Shown: in pieces, positions 3,820-57,105 of the stretch
Numbering within the stretch: the stretch's first letter is position 1
Layout: each line of letters starts with the position of its first letter
Virus record (IMG/VR): IMGVR_UViG_3300011443_000002
Coordinates: 3,316 to 67,315 of that record
Strand: one strand, 5' to 3'
DNA from: a virus
Length of the DNA stretch: 64,000 nt
The notes under the pieces: model-generated
What the model was told of the DNA's origin: nothing
The model's input: only the letters and a program-made list of their open reading frames with translations
Database searches by the model: none
Program-made: the position numbers and the translations under genes

Positions 3820-4062
3820 TTAGCGGGAGCCGCTCGGATCCATGTCCTCGTCGTCCGTCTCCTCGACGTCCAGAGCGTCCTCGGTGACTTCGCCATCGGC
3901 GTTGACCACGACACCGAACGTCGGACCAGACGGCTGGCCGACGACCACCAGCCACTCTCCGTCGAACGTGGCGCGGATCACGTTCACGTCCTGGCCGAAC
4001 GTCTCCGTGCAGTAAGCCTTGACCGTCTCGATCGCCTTTGCTTCCGTGATTTGCTTCGTCAT
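3820..4062 (-). CDS. Small acidic hypothetical protein (alternative leaderless GTG start at 4101)
   Basis: AGGAG SD before MTKQITEAK; acidic C-terminus. Confidence 0.75.
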   Translation of the reverse strand: MTKQITEAKAIETVKAYCTETFGQDVNVIRATFDGEWLVVVGQPSGPTFGVVVNADGEVTEDALDVEETDDEDMDPSGSR

Positions 4063-4245: not shown

Positions 4246-5016
4246 TTACTGAGCCGCTTCGGTGCTGGTCTCGAAGGCAGCATCAGCCACGGGCTGATCG
4301 GTCGCAGGAGCGGTCTCAGCGGCCGTCTTGGCAGCCTTCTTCGCTTCGGCAGCCTTGAGCGTCTCGACACGCTTCGCAGCCTTCGCAGCCTTCTCTTCGG
4401 CCTTCGCCAGCCGCTCGGCAGCGTTCGTGGCACGCTTCGCCTGACGCTCGGACCGAGCCGTCGCCTTCGCGATCGCATCCGCGTCCGGCACGAGCAGGGA
4501 GGCACTCGAGACTTCCAGCGTGTCCGGGATCGGGTTCGTGCCGAAGAGAGCCTTTCCGACGTAGATCGAGCCGCGAAGGCCGGTGACGCCGAAAGCGATG
4601 AGACCGTTCTTGTGGGTGGAGACCTTCGTGAATGTCATGATGCCGTTTCCTTCGTTGCTGTTGTTGGTGGTCGGGACGACGACGTCAGCGGGAGCCGACA
4701 TCGGGATCGCGTCAGGCTGCACAGCAGCCTTCTTGCTCGCCTTGCTGGTGGACTTGGTGGACGTGTTCTTGGTGGTCGCCTTCGTGCCTGGAGTCGTCAT
4801 GGTCGTATTCCTCTTGCCGTTGTTGAAAGCCAGATTGACGGTGATGCCCGAACCGAAATCATCGATGGTCACGAAACGCTGCTCACCGAGCAGATCCGTG
4901 TGCAGCCACGTATCGCCCTTCTGAAAGCTCCGCTCCGCTTCCGCTGCCGACTTGAACGTCTTGCCGAGAGCAGGCGAGAGGATCTCGAAGTCCGTGACGA
5001 TCTTGTTGCTGACCAT
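4246..5016 (-). CDS. Lys/Ala-rich, histone H1-like putative DNA-binding protein (256 aa)
   Basis: GGAG SD, ATG 5016; TKATTKNTSTKSTSKASKK and AKAEEKAAKAAKRVETLKAAEAKKAAK tracts. Confidence 0.7.
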   Translation of the reverse strand: MVSNKIVTDFEILSPALGKTFKSAAEAERSFQKGDTWLHTDLLGEQRFVTIDDFGSGITVNLAFNNGKRNTTMTTPGTKATTKNTSTKSTSKASKKAAVQPDAIPMSAPADVVVPTTNNSNEGNGIMTFTKVSTHKNGLIAFGVTGLRGSIYVGKALFGTNPIPDTLEVSSASLLVPDADAIAKATARSERQAKRATNAAERLAKAEEKAAKAAKRVETLKAAEAKKAAKTAAETAPATDQPVADAAFETSTEAAQ

Positions 5017-5913: not shown

Positions 5914-6164
5914 CACTCTTCTCCAAGCGTCGCCAATCCTCTGGCCAGGATGTTTCCGTGATCATCCATCTTGCACAGCCTCATGAGACCGTAGCGTTCT
6001 GGCTGTCCCTCGAATTCCTGCTCGGTGTAAATGGATGCCCATCGAGGACCGAAGAATTCGTGCATCAGCCTTCGAGCCGTTTGTCCGTCAGCTTCAAATT
6101 CGATGTAGTGGTTTGCGAGTGCTCCGCCGTATTGTCCTGCTCCGAACGTGACAAACATTTTCAT
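5913..6164 (-). CDS. Hypothetical protein
   Basis: MKMFVTFGAGQ...; coupled on both sides. Confidence 0.7.
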   Translation of the reverse strand: MKMFVTFGAGQYGGALANHYIEFEADGQTARRLMHEFFGPRWASIYTEQEFEGQPERYGLMRLCKMDDHGNILARGLATLGEE

Positions 6165-6610
6165 CGCACATTCCCTCTCGGACCTTGCACCGATTGATCG
6201 CTGGTGCTGCCATCTGGAAAGATGATCGTAACGTGCCGATTCATCTTCTTTGCGTATCGGACTGTCGTCCACGTGCCTGAGCGGATCTGCTCCAGAAACG
6301 TCTTCGGTGTAGCGATCAGAACATCACAGGCACGTGCGATGTCCATGTTTCGATCCAGATACGGCTTCGCATCCCAGACGATGTCTCCTGGCACGGCTCC
6401 GAGGATCGCGATCGCCTTGTCGTCGTCCGGAGGATGCAAGGTGCAGGGAATTCCGATCTCGTGTGCCACGTCGTGAGCTTGAGCGTCCGCTCCGATACAG
6501 CAACCGTGGTGCAGCCTTGCAGGGTAGTAAGAACGGAGCAGGACAGCGAGTGTCGCTCGCTGCCGCTCCGTCATGCCTTGTGAGGTGCCGGTGAAGCCGA
6601 TGATCTTCAC
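6161..6610 (-). CDS. SLOG-superfamily (YspA/DprA-like) nucleotide-binding protein
   Basis: IGFTGT, HHGCCIGAD, RNxDIA-D-LIA-P and SGTWTTVRYA motifs; GTGA coupling. Confidence 0.7.
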   Translation of the reverse strand: MKIIGFTGTSQGMTERQRATLAVLLRSYYPARLHHGCCIGADAQAHDVAHEIGIPCTLHPPDDDKAIAILGAVPGDIVWDAKPYLDRNMDIARACDVLIATPKTFLEQIRSGTWTTVRYAKKMNRHVTIIFPDGSTSDQSVQGPRGNVR

Positions 6611-6825
6611 AGCACCACTCGCTCGACGCCGATGTCGTTCATCACGTTCCAGCGTTTGCCGTTCTGATCGACATAGATGCAATACTCGATCGTGTCTCCG
6701 TCCTCGCTGTCCCACTGGACGACGGCCAGCGTATAGTGCGATTGGCCGAAGGAGAAGACCTTCGGAAAATCCTTGAGTCCTGCCTTGCTGGCGTCGAACG
6801 TGTTGGTGCTGATTGGCTGGCGCAT
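6607..6825 (-). CDS. Hypothetical protein
   Basis: AAGGGA SD before MRQPIST. Confidence 0.7.
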   Translation of the reverse strand: MRQPISTNTFDASKAGLKDFPKVFSFGQSHYTLAVVQWDSEDGDTIEYCIYVDQNGKRWNVMNDIGVERVVL

Positions 6826-7678: not shown

Positions 7679-7713
7679 ACAGAGATAATGCCTGAGGGAA
7701 AATCGAGAAGCAA
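7670..7713 (-). promoter_or_regulatory. Promoter TTGCTT-17-CATTAT plus ATGAAGACG; copy 1 of a 44-bp perfect direct repeat
   Basis: Identical to 8190-8233. Confidence 0.85.
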
Positions 7714-7730
7714 CAACTATTTTTCGATCG

Positions 7731-7775: not shown

Positions 7776-7994
7776 TCAGCCGACGACGCAGATACCCTTG
7801 TGAACCAGACCAACAAGCTCGGCGATCTCGTGCTGGCGAGCGTAGACGACAGGCGAGAAACGGCCATCGGCCTGGACGATGATCATGTGATTCACGGTCT
7901 CACGCGTCCGGCCGATCAGCGGCAGAACCTTGTCCAGAGCCTTGATCGCGTTGTCGGCGGTAGCGTAGGACTTGGCGTCAGCAAACATTCTCAT
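7776..7994 (-). CDS. Hypothetical protein
   Basis: AGGAG SD; 72 aa. Confidence 0.75.
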   Translation of the reverse strand: MRMFADAKSYATADNAIKALDKVLPLIGRTRETVNHMIIVQADGRFSPVVYARQHEIAELVGLVHKGICVVG

Positions 7995-8021: not shown

Positions 8022-8198
8022 TCAGCGGACGATCACGGCGATGCAGAGACCGTCTGCACGGTAGACATAGCCTTCTTCGTCGATCGTGAAACGCTCCGTC
8101 TTGCTGAACGAAGCCATCGAGAACGTCGGCTCGAAGTTGAGGATCTGGCCGTGAATCCGAACGGCAGCAGCGATTTCAACGATCGTGAACGTCTTCAT
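8022..8198 (-). CDS. 58-aa leaderless hypothetical protein (below ORF-track cutoff)
   Basis: MKTFTIVEIAAAVRIHGQILNFEPTFSMASFSKTERFTIDEEGYVYRADGLCIAVIVR. Confidence 0.75.
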   Translation of the reverse strand: MKTFTIVEIAAAVRIHGQILNFEPTFSMASFSKTERFTIDEEGYVYRADGLCIAVIVR

Positions 8199-8233
8199 AC
8201 AGAGATAATGCCTGAGGGAAAATCGAGAAGCAA
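8190..8233 (-). promoter_or_regulatory. Promoter TTGCTT-17-CATTAT; copy 2 of the 44-bp direct repeat
   Basis: Identical to 7670-7713. Confidence 0.85.
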
Positions 8234-8316
8234 GGGTAAAAACGACGATCGACGAAAATATATTTTGAGCCGCTCTGGTATGCTGGCCGGAGGTGCCAGC
8301 CTGCTACCAGGACGAG

Positions 8317-8813
8317 ATGTCGGAATTACGACTGATGAAGTGTCGGCTGGACGACTGAGCAGATAACGGTTTCGTGAGGTGTCGGTTTTACGACTGAGCA
8401 AGTGTCGGAAAGACGACTGACAACTTTCGCTTTACGTAAGCGGATGGCCGGTGTCGGAAAGACGACTGAGTAAGTGTCGGCCTGACGACTGGCAACTTTC
8501 GCTTTACGTAAGTGAGGTGTCGGCGGGACGACTGATGAAGTGTCGGAAAGACGACTGCAAACTTTCGTAAAGCGTAAGCGATGGGTGGGTGTCGGAAAGA
8601 CGACTGAGTAAGTGTCGGCGGGACGACTGACCTCGATTACGAAATTACTGACTAGGTTTCCCGAGCCGCTGGTGGGTGTCGGCGGGACGACTGAGTAAGT
8701 GTCGGAATCACGACTGAGCAGATAACGAAACCGTGATCCTCGAGGATGGGTGTCGGCTGGACGACTGAGCACGTGTCGGGAATACGACTGATGTAGTGTC
8801 GGAAAGACGACTG
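8317..8813. repeat. Array of 15 copies of GTGTCGG-N4-ACGACTG (six pairs and one triplet, 23-bp period within clusters)
   Basis: Copies start at 8317, 8340, 8379, 8402, 8451, 8474, 8517, 8540, 8589, 8612, 8676, 8699, 8750, 8773, 8796; only the first has A instead of the leading G. Confidence 0.97.
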
Positions 8814-8860
8814 AGAAGGTGCCTAGTGGTCCCTGGCTGGCCTGACCCTATATCTAGTGG

Positions 8861-8889
8861 TTGTATTGCCTGCAAGGATCTACTAGGCT
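8861..8889 (+). promoter_or_regulatory. Rightward promoter TTGTAT-17-TAGGCT
   Basis: Same -35 as the 53426 and 55183 promoters; faces the primase gene. Confidence 0.6.
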
Positions 8890-9012
8890 GCTCGTCCCGG
8901 ACTTGGTAGGGACGGCCATCCCTCGCTAAAGTGTCGTAAAGATTCGACTTCCGGCTCCAGACGGGAGTCAGATGCCGAGCGACAGCCAGGATCGGGACTA
9001 TCTGGAGGCTTC

Positions 9013-9240
9013 GTGAACGGAGCGTTTTACTCGTGGCTGGTCGCAAATCATCCTGTATTTGCCAGCCGTTTTCCTGCCTTGCGTCTTCCGACGGCCAGCA
9101 GCCGACTATATGTCCTGCTCCGAGCCGCTCGGAACGATCTAAAAATCAGATCAGAAATCCGGATCCATCATCGTCTGTGGAGGCACAGATCGATGACGGA
9201 GGACTCATGCCCGAAACAGATGGGAACAGGCTGTGAGTAA
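9013..9240 (+). CDS. Possible small protein upstream of primase
   Basis: GGAGG SD close to the GTG; overlaps the primase start. Confidence 0.4.
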   Translation: MNGAFYSWLVANHPVFASRFPALRLPTASSRLYVLLRAARNDLKIRSEIRIHHRLWRHRSMTEDSCPKQMGTGCE

Positions 9241-11239
9241 GGTGAAGCCTGTGCCGGAGTGGCTGCAAAAGTATGTGGATCGTGGCTTCCGCCTTGTGTT
9301 CTACCCAACAAAGCGGAAAGGTCCAGTGACAAAGGGATGGGAAGCCAAGACGTTCACAGCAGCCGACTATAAAGAAGGCGACAACGTCGGCGTGATGTGC
9401 GGTCACGAGATCCAGCCTGGAAAGTTCTTAGTCGATATCGACTTTGATTGGGCTGAGGGAGTGCCGCTCGCGAAGCGTCTCCTGCCTCCAACCGAATTCG
9501 GTTTCGGCCGTGATAGTCGCAAGCTCTCGCATGCCTTCTATACGGCTGGCTCTCCGCTGGTCACTCGAGTGTTCGACGACGTTGATGGCAAGCGTATCGT
9601 CGAAATGCGAGCCTTGTCCAGCGATGGGACGCTGGGTCATCAGACGATGATCCCGCCTTCGGTGCATCCGAGTGAGGAGATCGTGACGCTCCGCATGGAT
9701 GGAGCCATCGGCCACGACGACAACGTCGAGAGACGCGTCGTCATGTATGCCATCGGATGCTTGCTGTTCCAGCATCTCGGCCAGCGTGGATTGCTACACG
9801 ACGTTCGCTTGGCTCTCGGAGGCTTCTTACTTAAGGTTGGTTTGACCGAGGAAGAGACCATCACGATCGGTGAAGCGATCGCTGAAATTACTGGCAACAA
9901 CATCAACGACGTTGAGACGACAGTAAGGTCCACAGCCTCTCGCCTGAAGCAAGGCGAGCGAGTGGTCGGGAAGCAGGCACTCGAAAAGGCCATAGGGGAC
10001 CAGGGAAAAAACGTCACAGCGAGAATCAAACAGTGGCTCGGGATCAAGGACTTTATCGTCAACGATAAGGGAGCCATCATCGCCAACAAAGAAGAGAACA
10101 TCGTGCGTGGGCTGAATCAGCTTGGTGCCGAAGTTCTATTCGACGATTTCTCACAGCGGGCGAAGGTCAAATACAACGGCTTCAACGGCATGTTGATGGA
10201 CGAGCAGCGAAACAGGATGCTGCTGGACCTTGACAAGCATTTCCACTTCTCGCCTTCGGCGGAGCGATTCGACATGGTCCTGATGGACATGGCGTATCAC
10301 AACCGAAAGCATCCGGTGCGCGAATACCTCGAGAGCGTCGAGTGGGATGGGAAGCCGAGAGTAGATGAGTGGCTGATCAAATTCGGAGGTGCAGCCGACA
10401 CCGAATATGTTCGAGCGGTCAGCGCCATCGTTCTTATTGCTGCTGTGAAACGTGTGAGATCTCCAGGCTGTAAGGTGGACGAGATGCTGGTGCTGGAGAG
10501 TCCACAGGGTCAAGGCAAGAGCAGTGCTCTCCGTGCCTTGTGCCCGAAAGAGGACTGGTTCTCAGACGATTTCCCGATGAACGTGGACTCGAAAGAAGTA
10601 ATTGAGCGGACGGTTGGTAAGTGGATCATCGAGGCAGCGGAATTGTCAGGAGTAAGAAAGGCGATGTCCGAGCATTTGAAGTCTATGGTCTCGAGACAGA
10701 CCGATGGTCCGGTGCGAATGGCCTATGCTCGATTGCCTATGGAGCAGCCACGACAGTTCATCATCATCGGCACAACAAACTCGACGGCATACCTGAAAGA
10801 CGAAACAGGCAACCGACGTTTCTGGCCTGTCCGAGTCAAGGTCTTTGACGTTCCTGGCATCATCTCCGAACGTGATCAGATATGGGCTGAGGCTGCTGCT
10901 AGGGAAGCGAAGGGCGAGCGGAGCAGCCTGCATCCGAGCCTGTGGCCGATGGCTGGTCTCCAGCAGGAGCGGAGACGTATTGAGGATCCATGGGAAGTTC
11001 TGTTGGATTCCGAGTTTCCTCTGGACCAGAAGATCCGAATCACGCCAGAGAAAATCTGGGAGGCACTCGGCATCCAGCCTGAGAAGCGTGATGAACGCGG
11101 TCAGGAGCGGATCATCAAGATCATGCAGCGTCTTCAGTTCCGCCGTGTCACCGTGCGAAGCGATGATGGCAAGGCGACAAAGGGATGGGGACGAGATGTA
11201 ATCGAGGGAAATCTTCAACTGGAGCTTGAGGACAAATGA
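9233..11239 (+). CDS. Bifunctional primase-polymerase fused to VirE (VapE)-type helicase
   Basis: N-terminal prim-pol motifs (GW...NVGVMCG...LVDIDFD, SHAFY, QTMIPPSVHPS); C-terminal Walker A ESPQGQGKSS, WIIEAAEL, IIGTTNS-YLKDETGNRRFWPV. Confidence 0.92.
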   Translation: MSKVKPVPEWLQKYVDRGFRLVFYPTKRKGPVTKGWEAKTFTAADYKEGDNVGVMCGHEIQPGKFLVDIDFDWAEGVPLAKRLLPPTEFGFGRDSRKLSHAFYTAGSPLVTRVFDDVDGKRIVEMRALSSDGTLGHQTMIPPSVHPSEEIVTLRMDGAIGHDDNVERRVVMYAIGCLLFQHLGQRGLLHDVRLALGGFLLKVGLTEEETITIGEAIAEITGNNINDVETTVRSTASRLKQGERVVGKQALEKAIGDQGKNVTARIKQWLGIKDFIVNDKGAIIANKEENIVRGLNQLGAEVLFDDFSQRAKVKYNGFNGMLMDEQRNRMLLDLDKHFHFSPSAERFDMVLMDMAYHNRKHPVREYLESVEWDGKPRVDEWLIKFGGAADTEYVRAVSAIVLIAAVKRVRSPGCKVDEMLVLESPQGQGKSSALRALCPKEDWFSDDFPMNVDSKEVIERTVGKWIIEAAELSGVRKAMSEHLKSMVSRQTDGPVRMAYARLPMEQPRQFIIIGTTNSTAYLKDETGNRRFWPVRVKVFDVPGIISERDQIWAEAAAREAKGERSSLHPSLWPMAGLQQERRRIEDPWEVLLDSEFPLDQKIRITPEKIWEALGIQPEKRDERGQERIIKIMQRLQFRRVTVRSDDGKATKGWGRDVIEGNLQLELEDK

Positions 11240-13850: not shown

Positions 13851-13870
13851 TCGTCGATCTCGACTGTGTT

Positions 13871-14143
13871 GTAACCGTTGTAACCGGCCGACGGTTACAA
13901 AAATGTGCGAAAACACCTCTATTTTATTGACGTAACCTTTGTAACCGTTGTAACCGCGTTTCCTATAACTACCAGGCGAGAGTGCTTCACCCACCGAGTA
14001 ATTCTTACGCATACTTAGATCCACTGCTAGCTAGAGAGACTCTGGTTACACAGGTTACAAAGGTTACAGCCTCGGTTTTGCAGGGAAAAAGTGGGTTACA
14101 AGTTAGGTTACGACAATGTTTTACAGGGAGAATTTGAGTAACC
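13871..14143. repeat. 12 GTAACC/GGTTAC hexamers including an inverted pair of 9-bp-period triplets; candidate origin or pac region
   Basis: GTAACC at 13871, 13880, 13932, 13941, 13950, 14138; GGTTAC at 13893, 14044, 14053, 14062, 14094, 14106; AT-rich non-coding DNA. Confidence 0.9.
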
Positions 14144-14211
14144 GTTCCGTGCTCCGACCAACATCGAATTAGAATCCTCGCTGTTGGCAGGCAGGACTTG
14201 TAACTATGCTG

Positions 14212-55433: not shown

Positions 55434-56312
55434 CTACATCTGAGCCGTGTTGAAGCTCTCGTCTTCGGCCACGTCTGCACCAGCAGTGTCCACGTCGATG
55501 ATGATCCGCTTCGCCTTGAATTCGTCAAAATACTTCTTGACATCTCCGAGGACATCAGGGTGGATCCATCCGGGCATCAGCGATCCATCCGGCTTCGTCG
55601 CCGAGTATTCGGAAGGGATGTCCGAATTCTTAACGACGTAAACCTTGAAGGTTCCCTTCTTGTTGGTGAAGCTCTCGCTGTGGATCCGATACTTGCCAGC
55701 GTAGATCGGTCCGGGACGCTGTTTGATGAACGTGTTCATCTGCCGTGCAACCTTGATGCCGGTGGACTTGAACGACAGTCCGATGATCTCGAAGGACGGC
55801 AGCAGCATCACGACGTAGTCATAGAACTTCGTCGCGATCGGAGGGATCGAGGCACCAGACACGGCATCACGCGTGAACTGAGTGCGAGGATCGTTCTGAG
55901 GGATGTCCATGTCCTTGACTCCACCACCAGATTCACGTGGATAGAATTCCACGTGACGTGGAGCGTCCGCACGAAGGACGATGAATTCGAGAGGACCAGC
56001 GCCGTAGATCTCCTGAGTGACGCTGTTGAACAACTGTCCAAGCTCGAGACCGTTGATGAACTTGGCGTGCTCGGGATCAATCTCGAAGGACATCTTCTGC
56101 GCCAGAGCAAGGCGCGGAAGAAGCATGTCGTCCTTCGTGATGTTTTCCTTGCCTTCGTTTCCAGCGTTCTGCAGATACTCCGGCACGTCCTGTTTCGCCA
56201 GAGCCGTCGCCTTCGGATTGATCGGTGCCGGAAGGTTCGCCGCTCCCTGCACTACTTCGGGAATCTTGGCGTCCGTCTTGGCGATCGCCGTTGTCGTGTT
56301 CTTTGTTGCCAT
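55434..56312 (-). CDS. Putative ssDNA-binding/annealing protein
   Basis: Replication context; PRL-L-Q-S motif; acidic C-tail with aromatic residue (DVAEDESF). Confidence 0.65.
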   Translation of the reverse strand: MATKNTTTAIAKTDAKIPEVVQGAANLPAPINPKATALAKQDVPEYLQNAGNEGKENITKDDMLLPRLALAQKMSFEIDPEHAKFINGLELGQLFNSVTQEIYGAGPLEFIVLRADAPRHVEFYPRESGGGVKDMDIPQNDPRTQFTRDAVSGASIPPIATKFYDYVVMLLPSFEIIGLSFKSTGIKVARQMNTFIKQRPGPIYAGKYRIHSESFTNKKGTFKVYVVKNSDIPSEYSATKPDGSLMPGWIHPDVLGDVKKYFDEFKAKRIIIDVDTAGADVAEDESFNTAQM

Positions 56313-56323
56313 GTCTTATTCTC

Positions 56324-56494
56324 TCAATACGCTGTCGTGATGTGGAATCGAAGGCCGGTGATCCTCTCCAGAAGATGCTCGACCTCTATGACCTTCTTCA
56401 GATCTCCGATCGTGACCGTTGTGTCCGATACCTCTCTTCCAGTGGCTTCTGCCACAACCTTCGGTCCATCCTTGATCGTCACCGTGACTCTCAT
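56324..56494 (-). CDS. 56-aa hypothetical protein (below ORF-track cutoff)
   Basis: MRVTVTIKDG...; ATGA coupling. Confidence 0.65.
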   Translation of the reverse strand: MRVTVTIKDGPKVVAEATGREVSDTTVTIGDLKKVIEVEHLLERITGLRFHITTAY

Positions 56495-57105
56495 GACCGT
56501 GCCTTCGTCAAGACGGTCTTCGTCTTGGACCAGATCTTCACGCCATCAGGTTCCGGCTCGCCTTCTACCAGCCGTGCCTTACACAGACTGTTCGCTGTCT
56601 GCCAGGGAAGTGCAAGCTGATTTTCCAGACCGTTGTTCATGCACCACTCGCGGAAGCGATCGCGATCTTCCACCTGAGCGTAAGGTTCATACTGCACTCG
56701 GACACTCGAGCCGTCCTCGTCCAGCGTCAAACTCGTGAGACCTTCGTTCTCGAATTGATCGACCAGAAGCTGATTGTAGGCTTCGCCGATCAAATTGATG
56801 TTGGACTCGTGTGCTTCCAATTCGTCCTTCACCTTGCGAATGTAGCGGTAGACGACGGCAAACTGAGAAGCGTATGTCTTGCGGTCGCCGACAGCGTTCA
56901 TGAAGACTTCGTTGATCTGCTTGAAAGCGTGCTTGATTCGATCAAGCTCCAGACTCGTCATCCTGTCGATCTGTTCTGCTGTGAGATTGTCCTCCTGTCC
57001 GCTCTGGACGATCTGCTGTCTGACCGCGTTGACTCGGTCCTGATAGGCAGGCTCCGTGCCGAGGTGCCGAGGGAGCTTGTCGATGTAAGCCGAATACTTT
57101 CCCAT
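56491..57105 (-). CDS. Helical phage protein (Gam/Gp157-like region)
   Basis: Coiled-coil N-terminus; sits beside the SSB-like gene. Confidence 0.65.
   Translation of the reverse strand: MGKYSAYIDKLPRHLGTEPAYQDRVNAVRQQIVQSGQEDNLTAEQIDRMTSLELDRIKHAFKQINEVFMNAVGDRKTYASQFAVVYRYIRKVKDELEAHESNINLIGEAYNQLLVDQFENEGLTSLTLDEDGSSVRVQYEPYAQVEDRDRFREWCMNNGLENQLALPWQTANSLCKARLVEGEPEPDGVKIWSKTKTVLTKARS

Follow-up and report, generated by a model that had tools for sequence, protein, structure and literature searches.

Between two predicted divergent early promoters, the genome of a freshwater phage carries an array of 15 sites of 18 bp each, GTGTCGG-N4-ACGACTG, which appears from its pattern of variation to be under strong selection. 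The explanation we prefer, tentatively, is that the array, itself untranscribed, offers a dimeric protein a platform of cooperative site pairs, and that it acts on the early promoter region and is not the origin of the phage helicase. Positions are those of the window, i.e. the whole stretch of 64,000 nucleotides that was analysed, and the features discussed are collected in Table 1.

Table 1. Features in and around the site array, with positions in the 64-kb window
Feature	Position	Strand	Remarks
Pair clusters	8317-8357, 8379-8419, 8451-8491, 8517-8557, 8589-8629, 8676-8716	+	23-bp period
Triplet cluster	8750-8813	+	23-bp period
Possible degenerate 16th site, GTGTCG-N8-CGACT	8931-8949	+	In P_R leader; wrong spacing, 11/14
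Type-X linker, AGCAGATAACG-GTTT-CGTGA	8358-8378	+	Second occurrence 8717-8749, with 4-nt centre inverted
Type-Y linkers (three), CAACTTTCG-CTTTA-CGTAAG	8420-8450, 8492-8516, 8558-8588	+	Third with 5-nt centre inverted
P_L, leftward early promoter-like element TTGCTT-17-CATTAT	8205-8233	-	Runs into ATG at 8198, leaderless-like
P_R, rightward promoter TTGTAT-17-TAGGCT	8861-8889	+	Followed by conserved structured leader 8890-9012
Small basic protein, 75 aa	9013-9240	+	First gene of primase operon; homologues in L011, L013, L016, L017
Prim-Pol + VapE-like (SF3-type) primase-helicase	9233-11239	+	PF05272 (4.6e-68), PF09250; conserved C-terminal winged-helix-like domain
gp58, ORFan	8022-8198	-	First leftward gene beside array; self match only
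gp72, ORFan	7776-7994	-	Second leftward gene; self match only
SLOG/DprA-like protein, 184 aa	6161-6715	-	GFTGTS...HHGCCIGAD motif, Rossmann-type; PHROGs label 'GTP-binding domain'
~12 GGTTACA/TGTAACC heptamers in opposed sets	13869-14145		Just upstream of terS; some at 9-bp period

The original prediction of 15 copies at 8317-8813 was borne out, all of them on the + strand and 14 perfect, the first copy having A in place of G1. Matches to GTGTCGGNNNNACGACTG number exactly 15 in the window, all on the + strand, against a chance expectation of 0.8 and a maximum of 4 in 100 shuffles. A motif scan of the complete genome of 67,368 bp, which had been proposed as a check, returned no further copy, and no sites above chance occur outside the array. 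The degenerate sequence in the P_R leader, a possible 16th site, falls below the look-alike threshold of 12/14 and is not statistically compelling. Start-to-start spacings run 23, 39, 23, 49, 23, 43, 23, 49, 23, 64, 23, 51, 23 and 23 bp, and the grouping into six pairs and a final triplet holds as first described, with a fixed 23 bp inside clusters and with the distances of 39, 49, 43, 49, 64 and 51 bp between them measured from start to start. The description of the array as 'phased' is accurate for the interior of the clusters, but between clusters the helical phase shows only a loose scatter around one face.

Variation is distributed very unevenly along this DNA. Over the 15 copies, departures from consensus affect 1 of 210 cells in the core, 28 of 60 in the N4 and 64 of 150 in the 5-bp flanks (Fisher p ~1e-20 for core against N4/flank variation). 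The array has grown by tandem duplication in units of ~72 and ~138 bp (periods 72 and 138), and these units have diverged everywhere except at the 14 core positions. Because the core positions are near-invariant while N4 and spacers vary freely, selection is judged to be strong, and the constraint carries the apparent signature of a sequence read by a specific factor. ORFs within the array, as well as one that crosses its right end (8708-9046), receive a non-coding score from a codon model trained on the structural genes.

Each site had been described as having an inverted-repeat core, TGTCG-N6-CGAC. A dyad does exist, but its arms are only 4 bp long, the inverted repeat proper being GTCG-N6-CGAC with half-site centres 10 bp apart. 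Site positions 1-2 and 17-18 are invariant (bar the A at G1 in the first copy) and yet asymmetric, position 2 and position 17 both being T in 15/15 copies, and A is semi-conserved at +1 and at +4 after the site (13/15 each). The likeness to CRP/FNR sites of the CooA type, TGTCR-N6-YGACA, survives as a resemblance in geometry but not in sequence, the half-sites not forming the stated palindrome: only the GTCG/CGAC arms agree, and the right arm reads CGACT, not CGACA, in every copy. Three further identities were considered and rejected from the sequence: a T7-type promoter array, to which there is a partial resemblance (ACGACT...) without a single-subunit RNA polymerase gene; a sigma-54/NifA upstream activating sequence (TGT-N10-ACT), no -24/-12 promoter being present; and a CRISPR-like array.

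The linkers have a structure of their own. Five of them belong to the two repeated types in Table 1 and the linker at 8630-8675 is unique among them. The type-X pair forms an inverted pair of 14 nt with 93% complementarity, and at 8362-8375/8725-8738 and 8424-8440/8562-8578 the linker motifs repeat with their 4-5-nt centres inverted between short CG-bounded arms. With their centres inverted in this way, the linkers make up a nested set of inverted repeats whose midpoint is approximately the fourth site pair, the 18-bp sites remaining direct. No significant hairpins were found in individual array linkers. The longest linker contains a single E. coli-type Chi octamer, GCTGGTGG, at 8668-8675; one copy is the chance level, and an identity as a Chi array was rejected.

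It is very improbable that the array consists of transcribed RNA units or of single-stranded DNA hairpins. Its minus strand does fold better than shuffles (z -4.3), and all sites share one orientation, but the fold signal arises from the inverted linker cores and not from the sites, each of which offers only a 4-bp stem of ~-2.6 kcal/mol. Furthermore, both predicted promoters point away from the array, and Rfam gave no match; a tRNA scan was likewise negative.

A second assembly of the same phage is identical across 5,177 bp around the array, and three other freshwater runs, of 2018 and 2025, yielded 151-nt contigs that match inside it with 0 differences; the array is therefore no assembly artefact and is real in nature. 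The IMG/VR record is classed as a virus with direct terminal repeats, the repeat being 123 bp long (genome positions 1-123 and 67246-67368). This length equals a common largest k-mer of the MEGAHIT assembler, and the 'direct terminal repeat' may therefore be a circular-assembly overlap rather than a physical terminal repeat.

Relatives of the primase-helicase are numerous, hundreds of them having 46-66% identity. The gap upstream of the operon was inspected in ten close loci and ~80 further loci were scanned, and neither the motif nor a comparable upstream array was present in any of these ~90 loci, which span 39-66% helicase identity. Exact site-pair patterns gave no other match in a viral contig collection, blastn of the array gave none among phage records and plasmids, and a literature search for the site motif returned only primers and unrelated sequences. 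Among the viral, phage and plasmid sequences searched, the array thus appears to be unique to one phage lineage. In relatives the -35 boxes of the back-to-back early promoters lie 85-115 bp apart, against ~630 bp here, which points to the array being a ~0.5-kb lineage-specific insertion into an ancestral back-to-back promoter region. A lack of conservation in relatives had been named in advance as a finding that would count against a functional array, and the array is formally not conserved; because selection on the core is so strong, we read its absence elsewhere as the mark of a lineage-specific accessory element, not of a lack of function. The same comparison led to the rejection of a terS-binding pac site, terS being conserved in relatives that have no array.

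The two flanking promoters are predictions, based on duplication and on homology, and both proved plausible; a strict sigma-70 consensus scan detected neither. The 38-nt P_L element (TTGCTT-17-CATTAT, 6 nt, ATG) occurs twice, at 8199-8236 and 7679-7716, with 3 mismatches, both copies reading leftward and each abutting a start codon. Its position 6 nt before the ATG in both copies suggests leaderless early mRNAs, and the copy at 7679-7716 lies upstream of a 41-aa hydrophobic peptide that it would drive. The leftward promoter of one relative, L011, is likewise duplicated (59 nt, 3902-3960 and 4418-4476). At the P_L position relatives have strong near-consensus leftward promoters, TTGACA-17-TAnnnT, and P_L is a weaker match to consensus than these. 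On the other side, the P_R -10 box, TAGGCT (8884-8889), is invariant in an alignment with five relatives that extends through the leader and the SD to the start of the gene; the counterpart of P_R in L017 and L018 is TTGCCA-18-TAGGCT. In the leader of the primase operon, a GTCCC...GGGAC hairpin occupies 8894-8913, right where the transcript is predicted to begin, and one AAG is invariant. The -35 and -10 boxes are all free of sites, the edge of the nearest site being 47 bp away from the -35 of P_R and 83 bp away from that of P_L. The centre of the last site is ~91.5 bp upstream of the predicted P_R start, a distance that would suit a class I activator.

A partner protein was sought among the neighbouring genes. 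The early arms and the replication arm, together with the 3.3 kb that lie outside the window, were scanned against Pfam and PHROG, with matches to PolA, the primase-helicase, two further helicases, an exonuclease, a thymidylate-synthase-like enzyme, an FkbM methyltransferase, a cold-shock domain protein and terS. These scans gave no ParA, ParM or TubZ-type NTPase, no ParB and no integrase, repressor, Cro-like or Rep_3 protein, and detected no HTH, RHH or other DNA-binding family among the early genes. The 75-aa protein that leads the primase operon, whose gene overlaps the start of the primase-helicase gene, has no Pfam, PHROG or PDB match, its profile giving only chance-level ribosomal-protein matches against PDB, and it is conserved in relatives without the array. 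Protein atlas searches with the 75-aa and the 58-aa proteins gave no usable match. On the leftward side, neither gp58 nor gp72 has a match beyond this phage among 5.8 billion proteins, and the unique array therefore adjoins unique genes. The AlphaFold model of gp72 has a pLDDT of 53; for gp58 one model reaches 82 and the five models disagree, and a Foldseek search of PDB and AFDB with gp58 returned nothing significant. The binder could be one of the two adjacent ORFans, gp58 or gp72, a different early ORFan or a protein of the host. Elsewhere in the window (55434-57105, minus strand), two genes between two helicase genes match the Pam3 phage gp34-like and gp33-like families (PF23977, PF23984).

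The juxtaposition of array and ORFans leaves room for a more speculative scenario, which we consider rather unlikely. The array and its neighbouring ORFans could be a newly acquired, self-contained module in which an ORFan with a new DNA-binding fold coats the 0.5-kb platform of a lytic phage, serving neither transcription nor origin firing but, e.g., genome anchoring or positioning, or the absorption of a host or rival DNA-binding defence protein.

The same gene list bears on the earlier suggestion of a partition centromere. Such a centromere would be of the sopC/parC kind and would serve a carrier or plasmid-like state, with a small centromere-binding protein as its ligand. The 15-copy repeat array is of a copy number and span that are typical of centromeres, and it occupies an untranscribed location beside divergent promoters with small ORFan genes adjacent. 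However, the Pfam/PHROG scans of the early and replication arms revealed neither a partition NTPase nor a centromere-binding protein encoded alongside, and no ParB, integrase or repressor; the genes present (PolA, primase-helicase, two further helicases, exonuclease) resemble those of a lytic phage; and the sites lie off the promoter, unlike those of type Ib/II systems. The ORF at 6161-6715 was considered as a ParA or partition NTPase and rejected as SLOG/DprA-like. We regard a centromere as improbable.

More doubtful again is a role as DNA decoy or sponge, with which the phage would titrate, early in infection, a host regulator, the repressor of a resident prophage or a defence protein that binds DNA. 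Such a role would agree with a lineage-specific array of many putative high-affinity sites, placed in otherwise 'safe harbour' DNA between promoters of a phage in which no cognate regulator is recognised. Yet all 15 sites retain the same asymmetric flanks, with no evolution towards a perfect palindrome, and the motif is at chance level in 401 Acidobacteriota genomes, which is weak evidence given that the host phylum is a guess. We know of no precedent for such a DNA decoy.

Judged from sequence and by analogy with characterised systems, the array is probably not a replication origin either. In SaPI Rep/PriRep origins, 6-12 short iterons lie directly downstream of rep, in opposed sets around an A+T-rich centre, and are recognised by the C-terminal winged helix (PMC9371898); the pRN1 origin lies 3' of orf904 (PMC4234260). 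The heptamer cluster at 13.9 kb has this arrangement of opposed short iterons with an easily melted centre, for when the 15 least stable stretches of 40 bp in the window are considered, two fall within it and none within the array. Its GGTTACA motif and arrangement recur in L012, L014, L015, L016, L017 and L048, with variants in L013 and L018, and in L012 the cluster starts 28 bp past the helicase stop codon. In a survey of ~87 VapE-type primase-helicase loci (L029-L107), a cluster of at least 6 heptamer copies starts at most 700 bp past the helicase stop in 34/87, and another 13/87 have a heptamer cluster 0.7-4.5 kb downstream of the helicase; clusters upstream of it were seen in only ~6/77 loci and were weak or GC-rich. 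The heptamer motif itself varies by lineage (e.g. GTCCCAC, GTAGTCA, GTTTCCA, GGTTGAC, GTCACCA). Such 3' clusters appear to be a family-wide, SaPI-like origin signature in uncultured phages, and a practical rule for this primase-helicase family would be to seek the origin in short opposed repeats 3' of the gene.

Being conserved in relatives, laid out in the SaPI manner and placed in the least stable DNA, the 13.9-kb cluster is the better origin candidate and is probably the replication origin of the primase-helicase, and the view that its presence frees the array from being the origin is now strongly supported and extended. An element of SaPI type would also be expected to co-occur with its cognate helicase, and the array does not, as shown by its absence from the relatives examined. 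Moreover, the C-terminal winged-helix-like region of the primase-helicase is close to the consensus of relatives without the array, so that the conserved cluster would be its natural origin and the array needs another explanation.

These results weaken the earlier suggestion of a second origin, which we now consider unlikely. Under it, the array would be a second origin or an iteron-type copy-control array, bound by another surface of the primase-helicase or by an unrecognised initiator, and would either start replication or titrate or handcuff the initiator. It would account for 18-bp direct repeats that have a period of 23 bp and lie immediately 5' of the replication operon, and for the possible degenerate site in the operon leader; the inter-promoter zone should in addition be negatively supercoiled, and has a moderately A+T-rich stretch at 8237-8265, upstream of P_L. 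Against this, relatives without the array share the conserved replication module and C-terminal domain of the helicase, iterons across the family sit 3' of the gene (PMC9371898; PMC4234260), and the array has no exceptional low-stability DNA, only ~8225-8265 being moderately unstable, while the scans found no Rep_3-type initiator. Nor would the array and the 13.9-kb cluster form a pair of the ori/crr type, since the site motif is unrelated to GGTTACA.

The reading that we prefer, a docking platform in the early control region, sets out from the sites, from how constrained and unique they are, from where they lie with respect to the promoters, and from the presence elsewhere of a better origin candidate; from these we infer binding by a dimeric, cooperative protein with an effect on early transcription. 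A sequence-specific protein would occupy each 18-bp site as one dimer, and cooperativity between neighbours, whose centres are always 23 bp apart within a cluster, would give seven separate complexes across 0.5 kb, of tetramer type except for one of hexamer type. The platform would have been inserted between the back-to-back early promoters of one phage lineage and then expanded through tandem duplication. As all sites are at a single locus, its action would be local, and an effect on the early control region is favoured because the target is both strictly local and between early promoters. The bound protein may activate, silence or insulate the divergent early promoters, or the array may store a regulator. 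Activation from upstream is possible given the distance of the last site from the predicted P_R start and the weakness of P_L relative to the promoters of relatives; silencing or insulation through a large nucleoprotein complex is the alternative.

The original prediction of a high-occupancy platform for a probably dimeric protein gains support from the constraint on the core within units that have otherwise diverged, from the partial dyad and from a pairing like that of adjacent lambda operators, which lie 23-24 bp apart centre to centre. The location fits too: downstream of the array come P_R and its leader, both with homologues in relatives, and P_L directs transcription away from the array. 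Several points weigh on the other side. The early genes include no detected DNA-binding family and the gp58 and gp72 folds are uninformative; because the sites leave the -35 and -10 boxes free, simple occlusion is an unlikely mode of repression; the promoters are predicted from sequence; and 15 sites exceed any classical phage operator cluster, such a number being more typical of centromeres and copy-control arrays. The same-strand orientation and the pairing could also be by-products of tandem duplication and not functional requirements. Finally, a compact phage genome may have no room for 0.5 kb of untranscribed DNA other than between these promoters, and a merely tolerated position would favour the non-transcriptional rivals.

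Multi-site arrays are known as operators, iterons and centromeres, and the present array fits none of these cleanly. With the lambdoid operators OR1-OR2-OR3 and OL, which are bound by cooperative CI dimers, it shares pseudo-palindromic sites of 17-18 bp, 23-24 bp apart, between divergent early promoters. It differs in having 15 sites and not 3+3, all in one orientation and with invariant asymmetric flanks, none of which overlaps a promoter box, and in the absence of adjacent repressor or Cro HTH genes (CI/Cro-type). Among centromeres, F sopC has 12 repeats of 43 bp with an internal inverted repeat in each, and R1 parC has 10 iterons. The array resembles both in having at least 10 direct repeats that are untranscribed and next to the start of an operon, and shares the internal inverted repeat, which in sopC binds one dimer each; but its unit is a pair plus a variable linker, in contrast to a uniform unit of 43 or 11 bp, and it is found in an apparently lytic phage with no partition NTPase or recognisable centromere-binding protein.

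Theta iteron and control arrays (P1 oriR/incA, F, pPS10, lambda ori, P4 ori/crr) similarly consist of ~18-bp direct repeats about two helical turns apart, upstream of a replication gene, and an extra array could titrate the initiator, as P1 incA and P4 crr titrate or handcuff theirs. Iteron arrays typically have direct repeats of 17-22 bp with a period of ~22 bp; here the 23-bp period is confined to the pairs and the triplet, and the clusters are 39-64 bp apart. The phage also lacks a Rep_3-type or O-type initiator and a strong DUE, and its cognate helicase family has iterons 3' of the gene, as does this phage in the 13.9-kb cluster. In SaPI/PICI Rep and PriRep (PMC9371898) and pRN1 orf56/orf904 (PMC4234260), the likeness is to the replication proteins, namely an AEP primase, an SF3-type helicase and a C-terminal winged helix, with a small gene heading the operon. 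The counterpart of their origin is the cluster at 13869-14145 and not the array, which lies upstream, 5' of the operon, and has long 18-bp sites in a single orientation on one strand, without an A+T-rich centre or low-stability window, where the SaPI type has opposed iterons of 5-7 nt. The array thus belongs to the broad known class of multi-site protein-binding arrays, while departing from each specific family considered in that family's defining features. It is a large and strongly constrained element in one lineage of an uncultured freshwater phage group, with no recognisable partner gene, and the identity of its binder could reveal both a new DNA-binding protein and a new way to control or exploit a phage early region.
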